Below are positions 2,156-52,450 of a stretch of 64,000 nucleotides of DNA, in pieces. This DNA comes from Shigella phage ESh26, in the sequence record ON528736; one strand, 5' to 3'. Numbering within the stretch: position 1 is the stretch's first letter; each line of letters starts with the position of its first letter. The notes below the pieces were generated by a model. That model was not told where the DNA came from and did no database searches. It saw nothing but the letters and a program-made list of their open reading frames with translations. The position numbers and the translations under genes are program-made.

Positions 2156-3924
2156 AAAAGCCACAAGAAATGCAAACGATGCGTAGAAAAGTTATTTCAG
2201 ATAATAAACCAACACAGGAAGCGGCTAAATCCGCTTCCAACACTTTATCTGGACTTAACGATATATCTACGAAATTGGATGATGCTCAAGCTGCTTCTGA
2301 ATTAATTGCTCAAACTGTCGAAGAAAAATCGAATGAAATAATTGGAGCAATTGACAATGTAGAAAGCGCAGTGAGTGATACTACTGCTGGTTCTGAGTTA
2401 ATTGCTGAAACTGTCGAAATTGGCAACAATATTAATAAAGAAATCGGTGAATCACTCGGAAGTAAATTAGATAAATTAACAAGTTTACTAGAGCAAAAAA
2501 TCCAGACAGCCGGAATTCAACAGACTGGAACTAGTTTAGCTACGGTTGAAAGCGCTATTCCTGTTAAAGTTGTTGAGGACGATACAGCTGAATCTGTAGG
2601 TCCTTTATTACCGGCTCCTGAAGCAGTTAATAATGATCCTGATGCTGATTTTTTCCCTACCCCTCAGCCAGTTGAACCTAAACAAGAATCGCCAGAAGAA
2701 AAACAGAAAAAAGACGCATTTAACTTAAAATTATCTCAAGCTTTAGATAAATTAACAAAGACTGTTGATTTTGGATTTAAGAAGTCCATTTCAATTACTG
2801 ATAAAATATCGAGCATGTTATTTAAGTATACCGTCAGTGCTGCTATTGAAGCTGCTAAAATGACTGCAATGATATTGGCTGTTGTTGTTGGAATAGATCT
2901 GCTGATGGTTCACTTTAAATATTGGTCAGATAAATTTTCGCAGGCTTGGGATTTGTTTAGTACAGACTTTACTAAATTCTCTAGCGAAACCGGAACATGG
3001 GGTCCTTTATTACAGAGCATCTTTAGTTCTATTGATGAAATTAAAAAATTCTGGGAAGAGGGAGATTGGGGCGGTTTGACGGTAGCTATTGTAGAAGGGC
3101 TTGGAAAGGTTCTTTATAATTTAGGAGAACTTATTCAGCTTGGAATGGCTAAATTATCTGCTGCAATTCTTCGAGTCATTCCTGGCATGAAGGATACCGC
3201 TGATGAAGTAGAAGGAAGAGCACTAGAAAATTTCCAAAATTCTACTGGAGCATCTCTCAATAAAGAAGACCAGGAAAAAGTAGCAAATTATCAAGATAAA
3301 CGAATGAACGGAGACCTTGGTCCGATAGCAAAAGGATTAGATAAAATTGCTAATTGGAAAACTCGTGCATCTAACTGGATTCGTGGCGTTGATAATAAAG
3401 AAGCACTAACTACCGACGAAGAACGTGCAGCAGAAGAAGAAAAATTAAAGCAACTTTCACCTGAAGAAAGAAAAAATGCTTTAATGAAAGCTAATGAAGC
3501 TCGTGCCGCGATGATTCGTTTTGAAAAATACGCTGATTCGGCTGATATGAGTAAAGACTCAACGGTTAAATCAGTTGAAGCTGCCTATGAAGACCTTAAA
3601 AAACGAATGGATGACCCGGATTTAAATAATTCACCGGCAGTTAAAAAAGAACTTGCTGCTAGATTTTCTAAAATTGATGCTACTTATCAAGAGCTCAAGA
3701 AAAATCAGCCTAATGCCAAACCTGAAACTTCTGCTAAATCGCCAGAAGCAAAACAAGTCCAGGTAATAGAAAAGAACAAAGCACAGCAAGCTCCTGTTCA
3801 ACAAGCATCTCCTTCAATCAATAATACTAATAATGTTATTAAGAAAAATACTGTCGTTCATAATATGACACCCGTAACGAGCACGACTGCTCCTGGTGTA
3901 TTTGATGCGACTGGAGTTAATTAA
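2152..3924 (+). CDS. 29: Baseplate hub / tail length determinator gp29
   Basis: 590 aa as in T4 gp29; N-terminal coiled-coil-like region, hydrophobic central segment; synteny. Confidence 0.85.
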   Translation: MKKPQEMQTMRRKVISDNKPTQEAAKSASNTLSGLNDISTKLDDAQAASELIAQTVEEKSNEIIGAIDNVESAVSDTTAGSELIAETVEIGNNINKEIGESLGSKLDKLTSLLEQKIQTAGIQQTGTSLATVESAIPVKVVEDDTAESVGPLLPAPEAVNNDPDADFFPTPQPVEPKQESPEEKQKKDAFNLKLSQALDKLTKTVDFGFKKSISITDKISSMLFKYTVSAAIEAAKMTAMILAVVVGIDLLMVHFKYWSDKFSQAWDLFSTDFTKFSSETGTWGPLLQSIFSSIDEIKKFWEEGDWGGLTVAIVEGLGKVLYNLGELIQLGMAKLSAAILRVIPGMKDTADEVEGRALENFQNSTGASLNKEDQEKVANYQDKRMNGDLGPIAKGLDKIANWKTRASNWIRGVDNKEALTTDEERAAEEEKLKQLSPEERKNALMKANEARAAMIRFEKYADSADMSKDSTVKSVEAAYEDLKKRMDDPDLNNSPAVKKELAARFSKIDATYQELKKNQPNAKPETSAKSPEAKQVQVIEKNKAQQAPVQQASPSINNTNNVIKKNTVVHNMTPVTSTTAPGVFDATGVN

Positions 3925-6375: not shown

Positions 6376-8429
6376 ATCTTGAACTTTTTAGACATTCCGT
6401 TGATGTTAACCAAAGAAGCCAAGATTTGAGAAACTTCGTTTTCCTCTTCTTTTGATTCTTCTACAAGGAATTGATTAAACCCAGCCATTGGACGAACTTC
6501 ACCAGTTTCCATTAGATGATCGCCATCATATACCGATTCTTCTAATTGTTCAGAAGGAGGAACGATTGTGCCTTCAATTAGATACTTGTTATAAGCAGTT
6601 TCTTTCATCATGTACGTGCTTACTTTATTAATCTTCAACAAAATTCCACGCGGTAGAATAACTTCAGCTTCTGATGGAAATCCCGATAAATGACCTGGAA
6701 CGATAACTTTGATTCGCTCAGCCCCTTTAATTACCATACCTACGCTAGTTTCAGCATCTTCATTCGCATAAGCAGAATGACTGCCCATATGCATTAAATC
6801 TTCAGCATCAACAGAACCTTCTCCTTCACCAGAAAATACTGCGCCGGAATCATCTAGAGCCATATAGTTTTTACCATGCTCACCGAAGATATTTGGTTTA
6901 AGCGATGTTGATACGAAGTTCTTGAAATAGAACATTTTATTTTCAATATTATGGCGTAAAGTTTTAAAAGTAACTTCTTGTCCACGATAAAGCGTAGTTC
7001 CTGGAGGAAGAACTGAACCTTTGGCAAAGGCAGAATCCAGCGTCTCGATGTGTTTAATAGCTCGTTCCATGTATTCTTCACGGGTAGAATCTGGTTTACC
7101 CAAGAGGAACGAGTTCATTTCAACATATGAATCTGCACAATAATCTTCAATTACATCAGACTCAGCTTGAGTCAGTCCTTTTGGAGTTACTTCGGTGCTT
7201 GCGTATTCATATGCCTGAGCAGCAGATTCATTAATCAATTTATAAATGCCATTCATGACAAATTGAATAATAGCTACCTTTTCGTCTGGTGTGGCTTTAG
7301 AACCTTTAACTAAATCATTGATAATTTTCTTAATAACATCAAAGCTATTAGAAATATTAATGTCAGCGAGATCGCTCAAAATTTTATCGGTTTTATAATC
7401 AAAAAATTCTTTATTCTTTAAATATTCTTGAGAACCTTGATGTGTTATATCGCTCTGCAGTCTGATAGACGGATCACGTAAACGCGCATGGGCCAATGCA
7501 ATATGATTTCGGAAGCTTTCTAGTTCATAATCGTTAGATTTAAAACGAGAAGCACTTCTCATACCACCGATAGCTCCTTTGCCGAAGTTTGAACCAATCT
7601 GAATAACACCAGAGTTCATTGGTCCTTCTGCTTTATATACCGGAACTTTAGATTCAAACTCTTGATATTTCTTGGCAGCGAAGCTATCACCCTGAAGCGA
7701 AGCATCGACAGTAGAATATTGAGCTTGTGCTGCCAATCGACGACTAATTTTAGTTTTCTGAATAACAGCTTGATCCGTGCGCTTATCATTTTCTAAAGCA
7801 ATAGAAGCAGCAACAGCAACAGCTTTAGGAACAGCATTACCTGTTTTAACATCTACATAAACATCACCAACCTTTGATTCAACTTTTGTGAATAACTCAG
7901 TTGAAATAGGAGGTACACCTGGAATGTCTTCTAAATTGGCATTTTTACGGTAAACCATAATATATGCATACTTTTTATCATAATCCCAGATTTCCTTTAA
8001 AAGAACATATCGACCTGCTCCTTTAGTACGTACTAAACGGTCAGCAATAACTTGCATTTGACGAGCTGCGCCATTTGTTTTACTTTTTAGTACGCGGAAT
8101 AAGCATGCATCAATTTTATACTGTTTCATTGTTTGAAGAGCAGTATCAAAAACGGCATTAATGACACCAATTGGATTTCCACCCAAGTTTTTAAGTTTAA
8201 CTAATGATAGTTTCTCATTAACACCTATCATTACGATATGCATCATTTTATCGCCTGGCTTAACGTTTTTATTTGTATCACCACCAGAGGTGTATGTACA
8301 AAATCTAAATCCAGGAAGCACACTTTCTTCGCCGGCTTGAATAGCAAAAATTTGAGGTATTTTATGCTTAGGATTTAAGTTAACAACCGGCGCCGAAGCG
8401 CCGTCAAATAATTCTGTAATAAGTTCCAT
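6372..8429 (-). CDS. Alt-like ADP-ribosyltransferase paralog (685 aa)
   Basis: N-terminal about 220 aa nearly identical to the adjacent Alt; C-terminal ART motifs YRGQ, FKNFVSTSL, EAEVILPRG; divergent centre. Confidence 0.8.
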   Translation of the reverse strand: MELITELFDGASAPVVNLNPKHKIPQIFAIQAGEESVLPGFRFCTYTSGGDTNKNVKPGDKMMHIVMIGVNEKLSLVKLKNLGGNPIGVINAVFDTALQTMKQYKIDACLFRVLKSKTNGAARQMQVIADRLVRTKGAGRYVLLKEIWDYDKKYAYIMVYRKNANLEDIPGVPPISTELFTKVESKVGDVYVDVKTGNAVPKAVAVAASIALENDKRTDQAVIQKTKISRRLAAQAQYSTVDASLQGDSFAAKKYQEFESKVPVYKAEGPMNSGVIQIGSNFGKGAIGGMRSASRFKSNDYELESFRNHIALAHARLRDPSIRLQSDITHQGSQEYLKNKEFFDYKTDKILSDLADINISNSFDVIKKIINDLVKGSKATPDEKVAIIQFVMNGIYKLINESAAQAYEYASTEVTPKGLTQAESDVIEDYCADSYVEMNSFLLGKPDSTREEYMERAIKHIETLDSAFAKGSVLPPGTTLYRGQEVTFKTLRHNIENKMFYFKNFVSTSLKPNIFGEHGKNYMALDDSGAVFSGEGEGSVDAEDLMHMGSHSAYANEDAETSVGMVIKGAERIKVIVPGHLSGFPSEAEVILPRGILLKINKVSTYMMKETAYNKYLIEGTIVPPSEQLEESVYDGDHLMETGEVRPMAGFNQFLVEESKEEENEVSQILASLVNINGMSKKFKM

Positions 8430-34153: not shown

Positions 34154-37100
34154 ATGGCCGAGATTAAAAGAAAGTTCAGAGCAGAAGATGGTCTGGACGC
34201 AGGTGGCGATAAAATAATCAACGTAGCTTTAGCTGATCGTGCCGTAGGAACTGACGGTGTTAACGTTGATTACCTAATTCAAGAAAATACAGTTCAACAA
34301 TACGATCCAACTCGTGGATATTTAAAAGATTTTGTAATCATTTATGATAACCGCTTTTGGGCTGCTATAAATGATATTCCAAAACCGGCAGGAGCTTTTA
34401 ATAGCGGACGCTGGAGAGCATTACGTACCGATGCTAACTGGATTACAGTCTCATCTGGTTCATATCAATTAAAATCTGGTGAAGCTATTTCGGTTAACAC
34501 TGCAGCTGGTAATGATATTACATTTACTTTACCATCTACTCCAATTGATGGTGATACTATCGTTCTCCAAGATATTGGAGGAAAACCTGGAGTTAACCAA
34601 GTTTTAATTGTAGCTCCAGTGCAAAGTATTGTAAACTTCAGAGGCGAGCAAGTACGTTCAGTACTAATGACTCATCCAAAGTCACAGTTAGTTTTAATTT
34701 TTAGTAATCGTCTGTGGCAAATGTATGTAGCTGATTATAGTAGAGAAGCTGTAGTTGTAACACCAGCGAATACTTATCAAGCGCAATCTAATGATTTTAT
34801 CGTACGTAGATTTACTTCTGCTGCACCGATAAATATTAAACTTCCGAGATTTGCTAATCACGGCGATATTATTAATTTCGTCGATTTGGATAAATTAAAC
34901 CCTCTTTATCATACAATTGTTACGACATATGATGAAACGACATCAGTACAAGAAGATGGAACTCATTCCATTGAAGGCCGTACATCGATTGACGGTTTCT
35001 TGATGTTTGATGATAATGAGAAATTATGGAGATTGTTTGACGGGGACAGTAAAGCACGTTTACGTATCATAACGACTAATTCAAATATTCGTCCAAACGA
35101 AGAAGTTATGGTATTTGGTGCAAATAACGGAACAACTCAAACGATTGAGCTTCAGCTTCCAACTAATATTTCTGTTGGTGATACTGTTAAAATTTCCATG
35201 AATTACATGAGAAAAGGACAAACGGTTAAAATCAAAGCTGCCGGTGAAGATAAAATTGCTTCTTCAGTTCAATTGCTGCAATTCCCAAAACGTTCAGAAT
35301 ATCCACCTGAAGCTGAATGGGTGACTGTCCAAGAATTAGTTTTTAATGGCGAAACTAATTATGTTCCAGTTTTACAACTTGCTTATATAGAAGATTCTGA
35401 TGGAAAATACTGGGTTGTACAACAAAACGTTCCAACCGTAGAAAGAGTTGATTCTTTAAACGATTCTACTAGAGCAAGATTAGGCGTGATTGCTTTAGCT
35501 ACACAAGCGCAAGCTAATGTCGATTTAGAAAATTCTCCACAAAAAGAATTAGCAATTACTCCAGAAACATTAGCTAACCGTACTGCTACAGAAACTCGTA
35601 GAGGTATCGCGAGAATAGCAACTACTGCTCAAGTGAATCAGAACACCACATTCTCTTTTGCTGATGATATTATCATCACTCCTAAAAAGCTGAATGAAAG
35701 AACTGCTACAGAAACTCGTAGAGGTGTTGCTGAAATTGCTACGCAACAGGAAACTAATGCAGGTACTGATGATACTACAATCATCACTCCTAAAAAGCTT
35801 CAAGCTCGACAAGGTTCTGAATCATTATCTGGTATTGTAACCTTTGTATCTACCGCAGGAGCTACTCCAGCTTCTAGTCGTGAATTAAATGGTACAAACG
35901 TTTATAATAAAAACACTAATAATTTAGTTGTTTCGCCTAAAGCACTGGATCAGTATAAAGCTACTCCAACGCAACAAGGTGCAGTAATTTTAGCAGTTGA
36001 AAGTGAAGTAATTGCTGGACAGAGTCAAGAAGGATGGGCAAATGCGGTTGTAACGCCAGAAACGTTACATAAAAAGACATCAACTGATGGAAGAATTGGT
36101 TTAATTGAAATTGCTACGCAAAGTGAAGTTAATACAGGAACTGATTATACTCGTGCAGTCACTCCTAAAACTTTAAATGACCGTAAAGCAACTGAAAGTT
36201 TAAGTGGTATAGCTGAAATTGCTACACAAGTTGAATTCGACGCAGGCGTCGACGATACTCGTATCTCTACACCATTAAAAATTAAAACTAGATTTGATAG
36301 TACTGATCGTACTTCTGTTGTTGCTCTATCTGGATTAGTTGAATCAGGAACTCTCTGGGACCATTATACCCTTAATATTCTTGAAGCAAATGAGACACAG
36401 CGTGGTACACTTCGTGTAGCTACACAGGTTGAAGCTGCTGCAGGAACATTAGATAATGTTTTAATAACTCCTAAAAAGCTTTTAGGTACTAAATCTACCG
36501 AATCGCAGGAAGGTGTTATTAAAGTTGCAACTCAGTCTGAAACTGTAACTGGAGCGTCAGCAAATACTGCTGTATCTCCAAAAAATTTAAAATGGATTGT
36601 ACAGAGTGAACCTACTTGGGCAGCTACTACTGCGATAAGAGGCTTTGTTAAAACTTCATCTGGTTCAATTACATTCGTTGGTAATGATACAGCTGGTTCT
36701 ACGCAGGACTTAGAGCTATACGAGAAAAATAGCTATGCAGTATCACCATATGAATTAAACCGTGTATTAGCAAATTATTTGCCATTAAAAGCAAAAGCTG
36801 CTGATACAAATTTATTGGATGGTCTAGATTCATCTCAGTTCATTCGTAGGGATATTGCACAGACGGTTAATGGTTCACTAACCTTAACCCAACAAACGAA
36901 TCTGAGTGCCCCTCTTGTATCATCTAGTACTGCTACGTTTGGCGGATCAGTTTCGGCAAACAGCACATTAACTATTTCTAATACTGGAACGGCAACTCGT
37001 CTGATTTTTGAGAAAGGACCTCAAACTGGAACTAACCCAGTACAGACGATGACTATCAGAGTTTGGGGAAATCAGTTTGGTGGCGGTTCAGATACAACAC

Positions 37101-47367: not shown

Positions 47368-48003
47368 TCACAGTTCAGATGCTACGGTGATTACTGCTTC
47401 AATGTTTTCTGCCGAGCGTTTAATGTCAAGATACACATTACCGTTTTTAGCGATTTTACATGACATTCCGATATCAGTAAATTTCTGAATATGGTGTTCC
47501 ATCATTTTGTATCCAAAAATTCGCATATTTCCATTGTTATTAATTTCAAAATTACGAATTCCGTGAGTGCGTTTTTCTAAAATAGCAAGATAGTTACTGC
47601 GGTAAGTTTCAACCTTTTTAAGAACAAATCCATTTTCATCTAAAAGTTTTAACATGAAGTCTTTATCTTCTTCCATATCGGAAGTAATCTCACGAGCTTT
47701 ACGAGTTGCTCGTTTTTTCAGCAGTTCAGGAGCATTTTCCTGCGCATATAAAGTTGCCGCATTTGAAATAATATCCTGAGCTTCACCAGTAATGATTAAT
47801 CCATCACCAGATTTTTCCACCAGGCCTTTTTTAATCAATACCCCAATATTACTATTAACTACTGCGTTACCTAAATCTGGATGCACCTCACGAACTTCTG
47901 CAGCTGTAATGAAATCTTTCTTAGCAATGGTAATTAAAATCGCAGCAGTTTTTTCATTCAGAACATCGTTAGAAGCTTTGATGATGTAAGTTACTTTAGA
48001 CAT
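47368..48003 (-). CDS. motA: Middle-transcription activator MotA
   Basis: 211 aa as in T4 MotA; ATG with GGAG Shine-Dalgarno downstream of an early promoter. Confidence 0.9.
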   Translation of the reverse strand: MSKVTYIIKASNDVLNEKTAAILITIAKKDFITAAEVREVHPDLGNAVVNSNIGVLIKKGLVEKSGDGLIITGEAQDIISNAATLYAQENAPELLKKRATRKAREITSDMEEDKDFMLKLLDENGFVLKKVETYRSNYLAILEKRTHGIRNFEINNNGNMRIFGYKMMEHHIQKFTDIGMSCKIAKNGNVYLDIKRSAENIEAVITVASEL

Positions 48004-48044
48004 TTTCTAATCTCCGTAATTCTGTATCAGTAGTTGATAGTTGT

Positions 48045-48074
48045 ATAGTACCACAGTATGCTTTGGTTGTAAAC
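48045..48074 (-). promoter_or_regulatory. Early promoter (GTTTAC-N18-TACTAT) upstream of motA
   Basis: Part of a conserved cassette repeated at about 30765 and 51845. Confidence 0.5.
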
Positions 48075-48106
48075 CGTTTTGTGAAAAAATTTTTGAAATA
48101 AAAAAA

Positions 48107-48130
48107 GGGAGAGCCGAGGCTCTCCCTAAA
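48107..48130 (-). terminator. Rho-independent terminator
   Basis: Hairpin gggagagcc-tcgg-ctctccc followed by a T-run on the minus strand. Confidence 0.55.
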
Positions 48131-48132
48131 AA

Positions 48133-48282
48133 TTACTGCATGACTGTGATAACTGTCATGATAACACGTTGAATTCCGAATGCAAGAAGACCTCCTGCTA
48201 CAGCTGGAACAACACCTAAACCCGCCAGTAAAATGCTACCAGATACTAATGCAGCGCTTGTAATACCTATAAATGGACTCAT
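48133..48282 (-). CDS. Small hydrophobic membrane protein (about 49 aa)
   Basis: ATG overlaps the gene 52 stop (ATGA); MSPFIGITSAALVSGSILLAGLGVVPAVAGGLLAFGIQRVIMTVITVMQ. Confidence 0.4.
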   Translation of the reverse strand: MSPFIGITSAALVSGSILLAGLGVVPAVAGGLLAFGIQRVIMTVITVMQ

Positions 48283-49607
48283 TTGATTTCCTCTAAATCT
48301 TTGGTGTATTCTGTAACTACATCAGTAGTTTTCCAATATTCGTTTTCTTCTTTTTTAGATTTAGCTTCTTCAGCAAGTTTCTTTGCTTCGTCGGAAGTCA
48401 TATGAAAAATGTTCATTCCAACTAGTTTATCAACATAAGAAGAATACATATCAATTTTAGAAAGTTCTTCTGTCAGTTCTTTACGAGTTTTACCTTGTAC
48501 AACAATTTCACCTGAAATTACTTTCTTAATGAAATGTGCCTTGGCAAAGGCTAAACGAAATGCTGATTCAGTTTCTTTGATTTTGTTATCAATTCGTTTC
48601 TGAACATAAGTTTTACGAACTTCAACGAAGTCTTTGATTAAATCAACTACGTTATCGTAAACTTGCAGCTTTCCTTTCTCATTAATAACAGTAATATTCT
48701 GGGAACGACGCTCAATCAACCCGAAGTCTTTCATAATTTTCGCGTGACGTTCTTCTTCATTATCGCTCAAAGAGTATTCTTTGCGGAATTTAACTTTGAA
48801 GCCAAAACCATGCTCACCACAAGCATCATCCCACGTAATGAAGCCTTTATCTTCAAGCGGATCTAAGATTTTACTCACATAAGTTTCACGATCATACTTA
48901 TACGGAATCTCAGTGATATTCATTTGAGTTCGTGAAGTAAACTTGTACGTTCCACGAATTTCATATTGACCGTCAATTTCAACGACTTCACCACGAAATT
49001 CTGGGAATTCTACCTTCGGTTTAGTTACTTTCTTTCCTTGAAGAGCTTGTAGTACAGCTTTCTTGACAGAAGAAACACTATGAGGAAGAATGTAAGTTGC
49101 ATAACCAGTTGCAATACCGGAAACACCGTTAAGAAGAACAGTAGGAATAATAGGCAAATAGAAAGCAGGCGGAATGTGTTCTTTATCTTGATGTACCGGA
49201 GCATATTCAGTATCTTTATATACGCTATAGAAATTTTTACTTACACGAGCAAAAATATAACGACTTGCCGCTGCTTTTTGAACGGTACGAGAACCAAAGT
49301 TTCCTTGACCATCTAACAAAGGAAAGTTATTATTCCAAGTATTAGCCATCAAAGCACCGGCGTCTTGTGCAGAGTTTTCACCATGATGATATCCAAGGTC
49401 CGCTACACCACCTGCAATAGAAGCGAGTTTGTGAAACTTATCTTTATTTCCTCGTGCCAAATCAAGAGCTCGAGCAATAACAAATCGTTGAACTGGCTTA
49501 AATCCATCAATCATATTTGGGATAGCACGATTTTCAACCGTGTACATAGCATAAGCCAATGCTTCATTATCAATGATACTTTTTAAATCGCGATTATTCA
49601 GTTGCAT
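48279..49607 (-). CDS. 52: DNA topoisomerase II medium subunit gp52
   Basis: 442 aa as in T4 gp52; GyrA-like cleavage-religation domain. Confidence 0.95.
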   Translation of the reverse strand: MQLNNRDLKSIIDNEALAYAMYTVENRAIPNMIDGFKPVQRFVIARALDLARGNKDKFHKLASIAGGVADLGYHHGENSAQDAGALMANTWNNNFPLLDGQGNFGSRTVQKAAASRYIFARVSKNFYSVYKDTEYAPVHQDKEHIPPAFYLPIIPTVLLNGVSGIATGYATYILPHSVSSVKKAVLQALQGKKVTKPKVEFPEFRGEVVEIDGQYEIRGTYKFTSRTQMNITEIPYKYDRETYVSKILDPLEDKGFITWDDACGEHGFGFKVKFRKEYSLSDNEEERHAKIMKDFGLIERRSQNITVINEKGKLQVYDNVVDLIKDFVEVRKTYVQKRIDNKIKETESAFRLAFAKAHFIKKVISGEIVVQGKTRKELTEELSKIDMYSSYVDKLVGMNIFHMTSDEAKKLAEEAKSKKEENEYWKTTDVVTEYTKDLEEIK

Positions 49608-49611
49608 AAAT

Positions 49612-49752
49612 TTACCATACTAGTGAATGTAGTGCCATAATAACATCAGAAATGAAAAGCACGACTTGAATTAATCCGAACATTACTCCATAATATAGTG
49701 CTACTAATAAAGTAGCAAGGGCTAATGAATAGCCCAAGATTTTCTTAATCAT
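49612..49752 (-). CDS. Possible small hydrophobic peptide (about 46 aa)
   Basis: Hand-called; MIKKILGYSLALATLLVALYYGVMFGLIQVV... Confidence 0.3.
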   Translation of the reverse strand: MIKKILGYSLALATLLVALYYGVMFGLIQVVLFISDVIMALHSLVW

Positions 49753-49903
49753 TAGTAGATAACAACACAAATGTTAAATATGCACACATACCCTGGGCTA
49801 AAGCTTGTGAAAACACACTGCTAGCATCGATACAGATAGTTAAAACACATGCTACTATCCAACAAACAAATGAAATAACTCCTAATAATTTTGCGATATT
49901 CAT
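49746..49903 (-). CDS. Possible small hydrophobic peptide (about 52 aa); ac candidate
   Basis: Hand-called; MNIAKLLGVISFVCWIVACVLTICIDASSVF...; in T4 the ac gene lies between 52 and stp. Confidence 0.3.
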
Positions 49904-49910
49904 ATTTTCC

Positions 49911-49991
49911 TCACTGGCGTCCAAAGACGCCTTTTGTTTTAAGATTGTTACGATAGAACTGCATCACATGTTCGTTATGGAAATTACTCAT
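49911..49991 (-). CDS. stp: Stp peptide (26 aa), activator of the host PrrC anticodon nuclease
   Basis: Translation [26 protein letters not shown] matches T4 Stp as recalled. Confidence 0.75.
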
Positions 49992-50157
49992 ACACACCAC
50001 ACATTTTGCATAAACGTTCAAAACAGATAAATCCGCCACCTACACACATCACGACAGCCACATTATCATTAAGAGGTAGACCTAAAGCCGTAAAGATTCC
50101 AGTCAATGTGAATAAGGCTAAAACTAATAGGTAACCCATTACAAATAGAGCTTTCAT
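49984..50157 (-). CDS. Possible small hydrophobic protein (57 aa)
   Basis: ATG overlaps ndd stop; its stop overlaps stp start; [22 protein letters not shown]... Confidence 0.35.
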
Positions 50158-50612
50158 TAGTATGCCTGCAAAACAAATTTAAAGTTATCAGCCAACATAC
50201 GGTTCATTTCTTCAAGCGTTTGATACTCAGAATGATGATTACGAGTAAACGCCAAAGCTAACTGACCTTTTCCAAATCCTGTCGTCAAAGGTTTCATCTT
50301 AGAAGTAGGAAGATAAAATACTGTGTATGGAACATTGTTATTTGCAATAGTACGCGCAAGCTGAGACCGACGCTGACGAATATGACTTAGAACTGCACTG
50401 AACCCTTGTTTAGAACGCTGATTACCTACATAAAATCGTGCAGATACACACGGACTATCAAATGGACCACCAAATTTGCTCACTAAAAAGTAAAATCCAG
50501 GGTTAGACAAAATGTCTTTATGCGGAGTTCCAAAAACCCATTCACCGCCCTTGATTGTACCAATAACAGTTGCGCCTGCATTATTCAAATCAGTAACAGT
50601 CATATATTTCAT
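50157..50612 (-). CDS. ndd: Nucleoid disruption protein Ndd
   Basis: 151 aa as in T4 Ndd; synteny. Confidence 0.85.
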
Positions 50613-50672
50613 GTTAATTTCCTCTAATTATTTTCTACTCCAAGGCCGCATGAATACATACGGCCCGATAAA

Positions 50673-50888
50673 TTAATCGTCGCAGTCGACGCTCAATTCC
50701 CAAAACTCTTCTACGGTATAAGTTTCAGTATCATTTTCAATACAGAAACGTTCATTGCTGTTGTTTGCTAAAGTAGCATTAACTGTCATTTTCTCGCTAG
50801 TGCTCTTAAGAGGTGAAATACGAATTAACTGATCACCATTATCTAAGCAAAAAATTTCACCAACTTTTACATCTTTAAAAATTTTCAT
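50673..50888 (-). CDS. Hypothetical protein (71 aa)
   Basis: ORF. Confidence 0.5.
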   Translation of the reverse strand: MKIFKDVKVGEIFCLDNGDQLIRISPLKSTSEKMTVNATLANNSNERFCIENDTETYTVEEFWELSVDCDD

Positions 50889-51003
50889 AATTCACCTCAG
50901 GGAGTATAAAATCCAAATGCAGTTGTTGACCATCCCATCCAATACGGAAAATTTGCACCAACGTAAAACATGAGAATATAAAACCAACCACTCAGCAAAT
51001 TTA

Positions 51004-51222
51004 TCATTTTACACCATTCCAAATTGTTTCAACCACAGATTTTAAGCCATTTTGATGAATGTCCATTCCGACAACCGCCATCAAATAAATTCCAACTACA
51101 ACTGAACCTAAGGCAAAAATCAGCATGAAAATGAATAAAGCTGGAAAAATATTATCGAAAAACCATTTAATAAATGTAAAAGCACTGCGTTTACGCTTCA
51201 TATTTTCCTCACATAAATCCAA
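51004..51222 (-). CDS. Small membrane protein (about 72 aa)
   Basis: Hydrophobic segment ALFIFMLIFALGSVVVGIYLMAVV; tracked start may be TTG. Confidence 0.45.
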   Translation of the reverse strand: MDLCEENMKRKRSAFTFIKWFFDNIFPALFIFMLIFALGSVVVGIYLMAVVGMDIHQNGLKSVVETIWNGVK

Positions 51223-51322
51223 AGTAAGCGTTTAATACATCAATCATTAAAACGATTGGGAATATACTCAAAACTATTAATATTATAACTACATTCCATA
51301 TAGCTTTAACAATCTTTTTCAT
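51209..51322 (-). CDS. Small membrane peptide (about 37 aa)
   Basis: Internal ATG with GGAGG Shine-Dalgarno; MKKIVKAIWNVVIILIVLSIFPIVLMIDVLNAYFGFM. Confidence 0.35.
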   Translation of the reverse strand: MKKIVKAIWNVVIILIVLSIFPIVLMIDVLNAYFGFM

Positions 51323-51350
51323 TTTCTGTTCCTCCGTAGTTGATAGGGTA

Positions 51351-51380
51351 ATAATACCACAGAGGAACAGTCTTGTAAAC
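51351..51380 (-). promoter_or_regulatory. Early promoter (GTTTAC-N18-TATTAT)
   Basis: Read on the reverse complement; upstream of the small membrane peptide. Confidence 0.45.
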
Positions 51381-51596
51381 AACTTTTTAAAAATATTCGT
51401 AATAAATGTGAATACCAATCACCACTGCCGAAACTTGCGCAACCCACCATGCACAAGCAATAAGTACAGAATTCAAAATTTTCATAATAACCTCATTACA
51501 AAAGTAAATATTAAACAAATTAATGGAATACTAACTAACCAAACAAAACACCACCACAATGAACTCATAGTTCAATCTCAACGATTTTCATTTTAC

Positions 51597-51803
51597 TCAA
51601 TAATCTGCTAAAAGATTGACGATTGCATCACGAAGACACTTATTCGCAATACGTTTAAGAGCAATTTCAGTTTCTGGAGCATTTTGAATAATCATTGAAT
51701 TCAATTCAGCCTCAGCAAACTGAAGTTCTTTAACTAATTCAGCTTTATATTTTCCTTGCCCTTTCTTAGCTTTTGCTCGTTTTAATTCAGCTGTAGTAAA
51801 CAT
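51597..51803 (-). CDS. Hypothetical protein (68 aa)
   Basis: Internal ATG with GGAG Shine-Dalgarno; tracked ORF 51597..51911 is over-extended through the promoter. Confidence 0.45.
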   Translation of the reverse strand: MFTTAELKRAKAKKGQGKYKAELVKELQFAEAELNSMIIQNAPETEIALKRIANKCLRDAIVNLLADY

Positions 51804-51844
51804 TTTATTCTCCAAATCCGTATCAGTTGATAGTTGATAGTTGT

Positions 51845-51874
51845 ATAGTACCACAGTCCTTGTGGTATGTAAAC
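51845..51874 (-). promoter_or_regulatory. Early promoter (GTTTAC-N18-TACTAT), third copy of the conserved cassette
   Basis: Near-identical to the cassettes at about 30765 and 48045. Confidence 0.5.
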
Positions 51875-51892
51875 CGTTTTGTGAAAATTTTT

Positions 51893-52450
51893 TTAAATGG
51901 AAAGATACCATCCGTTGTAGTTGCTTTTTCTTACAACCTTACGAAGGTCTTCTCTATCACCGATGAACTTCGGAGTGTACTGGATGACACCTGGGTGAAT
52001 TTCTTTAGTGTTGAATATAATTATACAGTCAGCGACCTGATGATTCAGAATGGGCCCTAGATTTATTCCAGAACCGTATGGATACTCTCCGCTGCATCCT
52101 GTTGTTACAGAAATCCAACGTGAGTCAGTTTGATGTGTCTTAACTTCTACACGAAGCCCGCAGTATCTTGGATGCGCCAATACATCCCATGCGTATGTAT
52201 ACGGGTCATTAACATCCTCTTGGCCTTTGTTAACATACCCGCTTAGCCAATCTGCTACAAAAAACTCTGCGTACACCGCGATACGACATCTTTCGATAAC
52301 TTCTGCTTTATCCTGGTTCGGGTTTTGTTTTAAAGAGTATCTTGCTGTATCAGCAATTTTGACCTTCATTTCACTAGTCAAGTCACTGTTCGATAGGGTA
52401 AATGTCGGAATCTGAAATAGTCTCTGTAAACCCGGATTCGTTTTCTGCAT
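51893..52450 (-). CDS. denB: Endonuclease IV
   Basis: 185 aa as in T4 DenB; position between rIIB and ndd. Confidence 0.85.
   Translation of the reverse strand: MQKTNPGLQRLFQIPTFTLSNSDLTSEMKVKIADTARYSLKQNPNQDKAEVIERCRIAVYAEFFVADWLSGYVNKGQEDVNDPYTYAWDVLAHPRYCGLRVEVKTHQTDSRWISVTTGCSGEYPYGSGINLGPILNHQVADCIIIFNTKEIHPGVIQYTPKFIGDREDLRKVVRKSNYNGWYLSI

Follow-up and report, generated by a model that had tools for sequence, protein, structure and literature searches.

Between the genes ndd and 52 of T4-type phages lies a short interval filled with very small, mostly hydrophobic reading frames, and the question that it raises is whether these frames are genes, to which families they belong and what their products may do in the infected cell. 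The stretch of DNA analysed here, called the window, comprises 64,000 nucleotides of Shigella phage ESh26 (record ON528736) and carries on its minus strand, at 49612-50157, four consecutive frames: 52.1, ac, stp and an ORF of 57 codons (the 57-aa gene, or ORF57). A sequence-only reading of the window had described three ORFs of 46-57 codons beside stp that encode predominantly hydrophobic peptides, and these are present on the minus strand with GRAVY values (hydrophobicity of the products) of 1.34-1.68, namely 1.68 for 52.1, 1.41 for ac and 1.34 for the 57-aa ORF. The best 19-residue hydrophobic windows of these three products reach 2.3-2.7, and the product of stp is hydrophilic (-1.03). The features of the string and its two anchors are as follows.

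50157..50612, minus strand: ndd (nucleoid disruption protein), the upstream anchor, 95% identity to T4 Ndd
49984..50157, minus strand: 57-aa gene, phrog_5941 (E=2.1e-27, residues 1-57 of 57), VOG5642
49911..49991, minus strand: stp, encoding a hydrophilic 26-aa peptide that activates the host anticodon nuclease PrrC (PF08133, E=2e-21)
49916..49931, minus strand: GC-rich hairpin GGCGUC-UUUG-GACGCC, located within stp at its 3' end and shortly upstream of the ribosome-binding site of ac
49745..49903, minus strand: ac, 52-aa acridine-sensitivity protein (phrog_2501, E=1e-24)
49612..49752, minus strand: 52.1, 46 aa, DUF7396, phrog_3595, with full-length HMM matches and T4 synteny
48279..49607, minus strand: gene 52 (topoisomerase II medium subunit), the downstream anchor, 99% identity to T4 gp52

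The region shares 97-98% identity with the ime09 group of Tequatrovirus (ECP2301, SA21RB, ime09), and the genome that hosts the string is that of an ime09-like Tequatrovirus rather than T4. In the direction of transcription the genes are ndd, the 57-aa gene (phrog_5941), stp, ac, 52.1, gene 52 and motA.1, and the T4 reference annotation maps onto the locus one to one, with motA, motA.1, 52, 52.1, ac, stp, ndd and ndd.1 through ndd.6. The T4 D-region 52.1 - ac - stp - ndd (NC_000866, T4p265-T4p268) has the same order, strand and overlaps as the window, its proteins 52.1, Ac, Stp, Ndd and MotA.1 are 94-100% identical to those of the window, and its promoter and terminator layout is alike. The two phages differ in that T4 lacks the 57-aa gene, that Ac of the window has one Thr more, and that ndd.2a is intact in the window (65 aa) and frameshifted into ndd.3 and ndd.2a in T4. 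The explanation that best covers the locus as a whole, and that is held with high confidence, is that the string represents the cluster of small genes in the D region of a T4-type phage, here an ime09-like Tequatrovirus. In T4 this cluster is removed by the saDelta9 and GT7-type deletions.

The small ORFs had been supposed to be coupled to each other, each by overlapping stop and start codons; of the five junctions that the string comprises, three overlap in this way and two are spaced. The ndd/ORF57 junction is TAATG, with an overlap of 1 nt, and overlaps of 8 nt join ORF57 to stp and ac to 52.1; a 7-nt spacer holding a GAGGA Shine-Dalgarno sequence lies between stp and ac, and a spacer of 4 nt lies between 52.1 and gene 52. 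The overlaps recur in related phages, that of ndd and ORF57 being -1 in 18 of 23 loci, that of Ac and 52.1 being -8 in 9 of 9, and that of ORF57 and its next gene being mostly -4 or -8. Translational coupling is plausible at most junctions.

The hairpin at the end of stp has a UUUG loop in the window, where T4 and ime09 have UUCG, the stable C(UUCG)G tetraloop. On the plus strand the hairpin is followed by a T-run and resembles a terminator for antisense transcription; the SA21RB record annotates a terminator at this position.

Further small ORFs lie outside the string. The 49-codon membrane ORF reported at 48133-48282 is motA.1, the start of which overlaps the stop of gene 52 (ATGA), and the two ORFs noticed at 51004-51322 are ndd.2a (65 aa) and ndd.4 (37 aa). 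These ORFs and the transcription signals around them are the following.

51351..51379, minus strand: T4 early-type promoter TTTACA-17-TATTAT with TG, the equivalent of which is annotated in SA21RB
51209..51322, minus strand: ndd.4, 37-aa hydrophobic protein (phrog_3098, E=3.9e-21), 95% identity to T4 Ndd.4
51004..51201, minus strand: ndd.2a, with its ATG at 51201 and a length of 65 aa, DUF7248 (PF23906, E=5e-20; phrog_2401, E=1.2e-29)
48133..48282, minus strand: motA.1, 49 aa, hydrophobic, GRAVY 1.60 (phrog_3487, E=2.2e-31), 100% identity to T4 MotA.1
48106..48127, minus strand: intrinsic terminator after motA.1, a 9-bp stem followed by a T-run, annotated in SA21RB

The string lies on one strand between the early promoter and the motA.1 terminator, and this promoter can drive a transcription unit that runs from ndd.4 to motA.1. 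Time-resolved omics of T4 places 52.1, ac, stp, motA.1, ndd.2 and ndd.2a in the early RNA class, and the same data set detects Ndd and Ndd.1 early as proteins and the products of the six small genes not at all (PMC9697503 supplement). Such non-detection is expected because the products are hydrophobic peptides of 4-6 kDa. The literature searched yielded no usable ribosome profiling of small proteins of T4, and a scan of 47900-52000 against Rfam gave nothing near any gathering score.

At 6433-6629 of the T4 locus lie ndd.3, of 26 aa, and ndd.2a, of 40 aa, which correspond to the two halves of a single 65-aa DUF7248 gene. Compared with 51004-51201 of the window, T4 has a deletion of 1 nt right after ATGAA(G), and given this deletion the split T4 annotation reflects either a frameshift or an error of sequencing.

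The view that all small ORFs other than stp and ac are unannotated does not stand, since 52.1, motA.1, ndd.2a and ndd.4 are annotated genes of the T4 reference, Pfam has DUF families for 52.1 and ndd.2a, PHROG has families for all of them, and the 57-aa gene carries a hypothetical-protein annotation in related genomes (ime09, Shfl2 and SA21RB, where it is VOG5642). Every small ORF matches its PHROG family over the whole length, with E values from 1e-15 to 1e-31, and a search of NCBIfam gave no meaningful match. The string consists of already catalogued T4-type genes plus a catalogued hypothetical family and holds no new kind of element. Annotation of these genes is uneven among GenBank records: that of SA21RB includes all small genes of the string except stp, that of ime09 lacks 52.1 and stp, that of Mexia lacks the 57-aa gene, and several matches sit under no annotated feature of their records.

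Conservation of the frames was followed through loci that comprise 36 from viral contigs, found with Ndd as anchor, together with those of T4, ime09, KP179, Vettismorki and UPEC07. Complete loci numbered 39, that of the window among them, with Ndd identities of 45-99%. In all 39 the interval from ndd to gene 52 consists of a series of very small hydrophobic ORFs that belong to a limited number of families, and the families, lengths and overlaps seen in the window recur across these loci. Gene 52.1 is present in 37 loci, the 57-aa family in 25 (with three further loci seen by tblastn only) and stp in 17; the Ac type is present in 14, or in 18 if one adds four that fall in the 'GVWxP' family as well. 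Internal controls are given by 13 out-of-frame ORFs that overlap the string genes, which have low hydrophobicity, belong to none of the six families and show no conservation across the 39 loci. Because family, length, order and overlaps are conserved and dN is lower than dS, the frames of the string are protein-coding genes under purifying selection and not chance ORFs.

At the position of ac, other Tevenvirinae (loci L005, L010-L019 and L027-L041) have two further hydrophobic families that are absent from the window, one marked by a G(V/A)W(V/T)P motif and about 53 aa long (the 'GVWxP' family, 22 loci) and one about 43 aa long (4 loci). All-against-all comparison of the five small families with hhalign gives probabilities below 3% and thus no evidence of paralogy or duplication among the small genes, and the five families have no detectable relation to solved structures. 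The interval is modular: throughout the Tevenvirinae, stp and five or more small-TM families that are unrelated to each other come and go between ndd and gene 52.

Gene 52.1 is the most widespread member of the string, being present in 910 phage records and, in 37 of the 39 loci, directly upstream of gene 52. Its product in the window is 98% identical to T4 gp52.1 and matches PF24129 (DUF7396 of Pfam) with 81.9 bits over residues 1-46 of 46, the cutoff being 27, and phrog_3595 with E=1.2e-25. The family has the conserved pattern LYYG...LFISDV...SLxW, which the gp52.1 of the window also has, and against RB69-like loci dN is 0.04-0.09 and dS 0.4-0.86 (Nei-Gojobori, as for the other genes). The AF2 model of gp52.1 is a single unbroken helix of residues 2-45 with a pLDDT of 96, and the protein is accordingly predicted as one long hydrophobic helix; a fold search with this helix found no match.

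Stp of the window is 100% identical to that of T4, and stp has a dN of 0 and a dS of 0.27-0.52.

The 57-aa gene is the only member of the string that is missing from the T4 reference. In T4 the ndd stop is joined straight to the stp start (TAATG), leaving a 166-nt gap, and the window has there 166 extra bases that are flanked by ATGA on both sides and encode the 57-aa protein. By tblastn the gene is found in 221 phage records, with at least 90% identity in just 21 of them; 161 are Klebsiella phages, in which the identity is about 40% and the gene always adjoins ndd. In each of the 25 loci that have it among the 39, it comes directly after ndd. An exhaustive profile search of 1.84 billion representatives returned about 11 relatives, all of 47-61 aa, and no credible bacterial or larger homologue, and a word-indexed search returned three proteins. 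The dN/dS of the gene is 0.25-0.44, as in comparisons with a dN of 0.22 and a dS of 0.90, or a dN of 0.18 and a dS of 0.41.

Homologues of phrog_5941 (VOG5642) occur in Jiaodavirus, Slopekvirus, Winklervirus and Gaprivervirus, for example KP179 gp247 and Vettismorki CDS0287. Like the gene of the window they encode 57-61 aa, come immediately after ndd with an overlapping start and combine a two-helix hydrophobic pattern with a C-terminal ER...G motif, but their identity to it is a mere 30-68%, and in those phages the next gene is a small one of the ac type or 'GVWxP' type, whereas in the window it is stp. The residues conserved family-wide are L10, G20, G26, E47, R48 and G54. The AF2 model, with a pLDDT of 71, is a helical hairpin formed by residues 2-24, a GLPLND loop and residues 31-52, so the product is predicted to be a two-helix membrane hairpin; Foldseek comparison of the hairpin with the PDB gave generic helical hairpins alone, with E>1.

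The expectation that one of the ORFs is ac is borne out by the gene between stp and 52.1, the position that ac has in T4, which matches phrog_2501 and encodes a protein 94% identical to T4 Ac with a known extra Thr near the C-terminus. Ac is found in 471 phage records, and its dN is 0.008 against a dS of 0.17. Among the hydrophobic products of the string, a phenotype is known for Ac only. Deletion of ac or the change G38R makes T4 resistant to acriflavine, and ac expressed alone sensitises E. coli to acriflavine and ampicillin; both T4 Ac and the PP01 variant with the added Thr have been shown to have the acriflavine phenotype (bioRxiv 10.1101/2025.06.30.662393). That Ac blocks AcrAB-TolC is the proposal of the same authors, repeated in PMC13250531, so that the publications on Ac point to drug efflux or permeability, with AcrAB-TolC as a proposed target.

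As for function, the sequence-only reading took the ORFs for candidate small membrane proteins with putative roles in exclusion, transport or host takeover, and they do encode hydrophobic, membrane-type products of conserved genes. In the preferred reading the three hydrophobic products would enter the inner membrane of the host in the first minutes of infection, gp52.1 as a single long helix and Ac and the 57-aa protein as two-helix hairpins, and would there modulate host membrane complexes or permeability. Ac, following the published proposal, would block AcrAB-TolC efflux and in this way sensitise the cell to acriflavine. By analogy, gp52.1 and the 57-aa protein may bind the transmembrane part of a host complex, a tentative suggestion that falls somewhat short of an even chance. 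T4 has other small membrane-associated proteins that are early or nonessential and alter the host envelope, such as Imm, Sp, rI and rIII; these are encoded at different loci from 52.1, Ac and the 57-aa gene, library searches found no sequence relation between the two groups, and 52.1, Ac and the 57-aa gene are not known to affect exclusion or the timing of lysis.

Taken together, the conserved early small membrane proteins of the string are present in 910 (52.1), 471 (Ac) and 221 (57-aa gene) records. The saDelta9 deletion, which removes 52.1 through denB, leaves the phage viable in the laboratory with a burst of about half, and the phospholipid synthesis that T4 stimulates is lost in it (PMC6071114). 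Re-engineering has also yielded a comparable deletion that spans 52.1 to rIIB (PMC9712115). Acridine sensitivity and the stimulation of phospholipid synthesis that is lost in saDelta9 are the two phenotypes of the locus, and any product that specifically inhibits an efflux pump or other membrane complex would be of interest for antibiotic adjuvants and phage-antibiotic synergy.

Instead of modulating specific complexes, the products could be membrane-damaging or gate-keeping peptides, such as factors of superinfection exclusion in the manner of Imm and Sp of T4, depolarising toxins or holin-like aids of host shut-off. A large number of the small immediate-early genes of T4 kill the host when they are cloned (PMC6071114), the size and hydrophobicity of the products are like those of small membrane toxins, and the hypersensitivity of Ac-expressing cells to the unrelated compounds acriflavine and ampicillin would fit general leakiness too. 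The motifs LYYG...LFISDV of 52.1 and ER...G of ORF57, however, are strongly conserved, which suggests specific contacts, and the single G38R change in Ac abolishes its effect, so this reading is possible but unlikely.

The tight linkage of the small genes to their neighbours, with the start of ORF57 overlapping the ndd stop in 18 of 23 loci and 52.1 standing immediately upstream of gene 52 in 37 of 39, would suit membrane tethers, the 57-aa protein anchoring Ndd (and with it host DNA) and gp52.1 anchoring the gp39/52/60 topoisomerase and the replication complex. Ndd itself attaches host DNA to the membrane (T4 record NC_000866). T4 nevertheless lives and disrupts nucleoids without the 57-aa gene, and deletions that remove 52.1 are viable with a burst size of about 50%, which makes tethering improbable.

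An extension of the preferred reading, in which the products act on host membrane complexes, is that small-TM families, unrelated to each other and at least five in number, are exchanged in the interval from ndd to gene 52, each being aimed at a different inner-membrane machine, with gp52.1 and Ac acting together on AcrB and the 57-aa protein on a further target. This extension is speculative and has a low probability; if it were true, the locus would amount to a natural collection of small phage proteins that inhibit membrane complexes of bacteria.

The acridine link prompted a comparison of the small families with AcrZ (PF10766), a 49-aa regulator of AcrB, the sequence of which was verified against PDB 4c48. 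AcrZ belongs to the same size class as gp52.1, is likewise a single long hydrophobic helix, shares a weak colinear motif with it and connects by theme with the acridine phenotype of ac, which overlaps 52.1. The hhalign score of the 52.1 profile is 19.7 against the single AcrZ sequence (probability 16%) and 20.7 profile against profile (probability 38%), with 34-37 aligned columns in which K...GxxYG...S...V is in register. These scores exceed the highest values obtained with 300 TM-shuffled AcrZ sequences (17.4) and with 140 natural hydrophobic windows taken from inner-membrane proteins of E. coli (15.2), and the other four small families have hhalign probabilities of 0.1-0.2% with AcrZ.

A score above all 440 controls would favour gp52.1 as a mimic or competitor of AcrZ that binds AcrB and cooperates with Ac in shutting efflux, as would the confinement of both to enterobacteria or their phages, AcrZ not being known from outside the enterobacteria. 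This mimicry is nonetheless very doubtful. Pfam AcrZ is not matched, not being listed at E<=1, and the 52.1 HMM found nothing at E<=10 among PDB sequences, AcrZ included. The bend of the AcrZ helix at Pro16 is essential for AcrB binding, and AcrZ has an N-out/C-in topology (PMC7267776); the 52.1 family is without Pro, the aligned residue being Thr or Ala, the AF2 model is unbroken from 2 to 45, and the MIKK N-terminus of gp52.1 predicts N-in by the positive-inside rule. The resemblance was also noticed post hoc. Membership of gp52.1 in the AcrZ family itself is ruled out by the failed PF10766 and HMM matches, the missing Pro16 bend and the opposite predicted topology.

Hydrophobicity alone is within chance for this genome: the window has 267 six-frame ATG-ORFs of 26-75 aa, 22 of them with a GRAVY of at least 1.3, and hydrophobic ORFs of this kind with at least 45 aa number five, of which four are in this cluster. 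The fifth, at 35638-35784 on the minus strand (48 aa, GRAVY 1.64), may be out of frame within a larger gene. That the string ORFs are chance products of T-rich, AT-rich sequence, which those 22 of 267 ORFs and the absence of the products from the T4 proteomics detections would allow, has a probability close to nil against family, length, order and overlaps kept over 39 loci of several genera, dN < dS, curated Pfam and PHROG families, and the genetics and expression phenotype of ac.

The locus also bears marks of exchange between phages. At 3441-3684 of locus L039 the 57-aa gene is 95% identical to that of the window and stp 100% identical to it (window 49911-50157), the latter measured over an L039 stp ORF of 25 aa, one residue short. 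The flanks of L039 are more distant, with 62% identity for Ndd and 81% for gp52, and dS against the window is 0.11 in the 57-aa gene and 0.39 in the flanking 52.1. Because the small genes of L039 are near-identical to those of the window while Ndd and gp52 have diverged, and because dS is lower, the comparison points to a recent lateral exchange of the small-gene module.

Two kinds of repeat are present in the region. A 67-nt early-promoter cassette occurs in three copies (48031-48097, 51337-51403 and 51831-51897) with 63-84% identity, the early promoter at 51351-51379 belonging to this family, and a 28-nt repeat (82%) occurs both at the stp/ac junction (49899-49926) and at that of ndd.4 and ndd.2a (51197-51224). 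The cassettes and the 28-nt repeat could serve as substrates for modular shuffling.

A last observation concerns the upstream anchor. In several GenBank phage records, as shown for that of Klebsiella phage Mexia (446-901 of locus L042), Ndd is annotated as 'naphthalene 1,2-dioxygenase', apparently an annotation error passed on from one record to the next.
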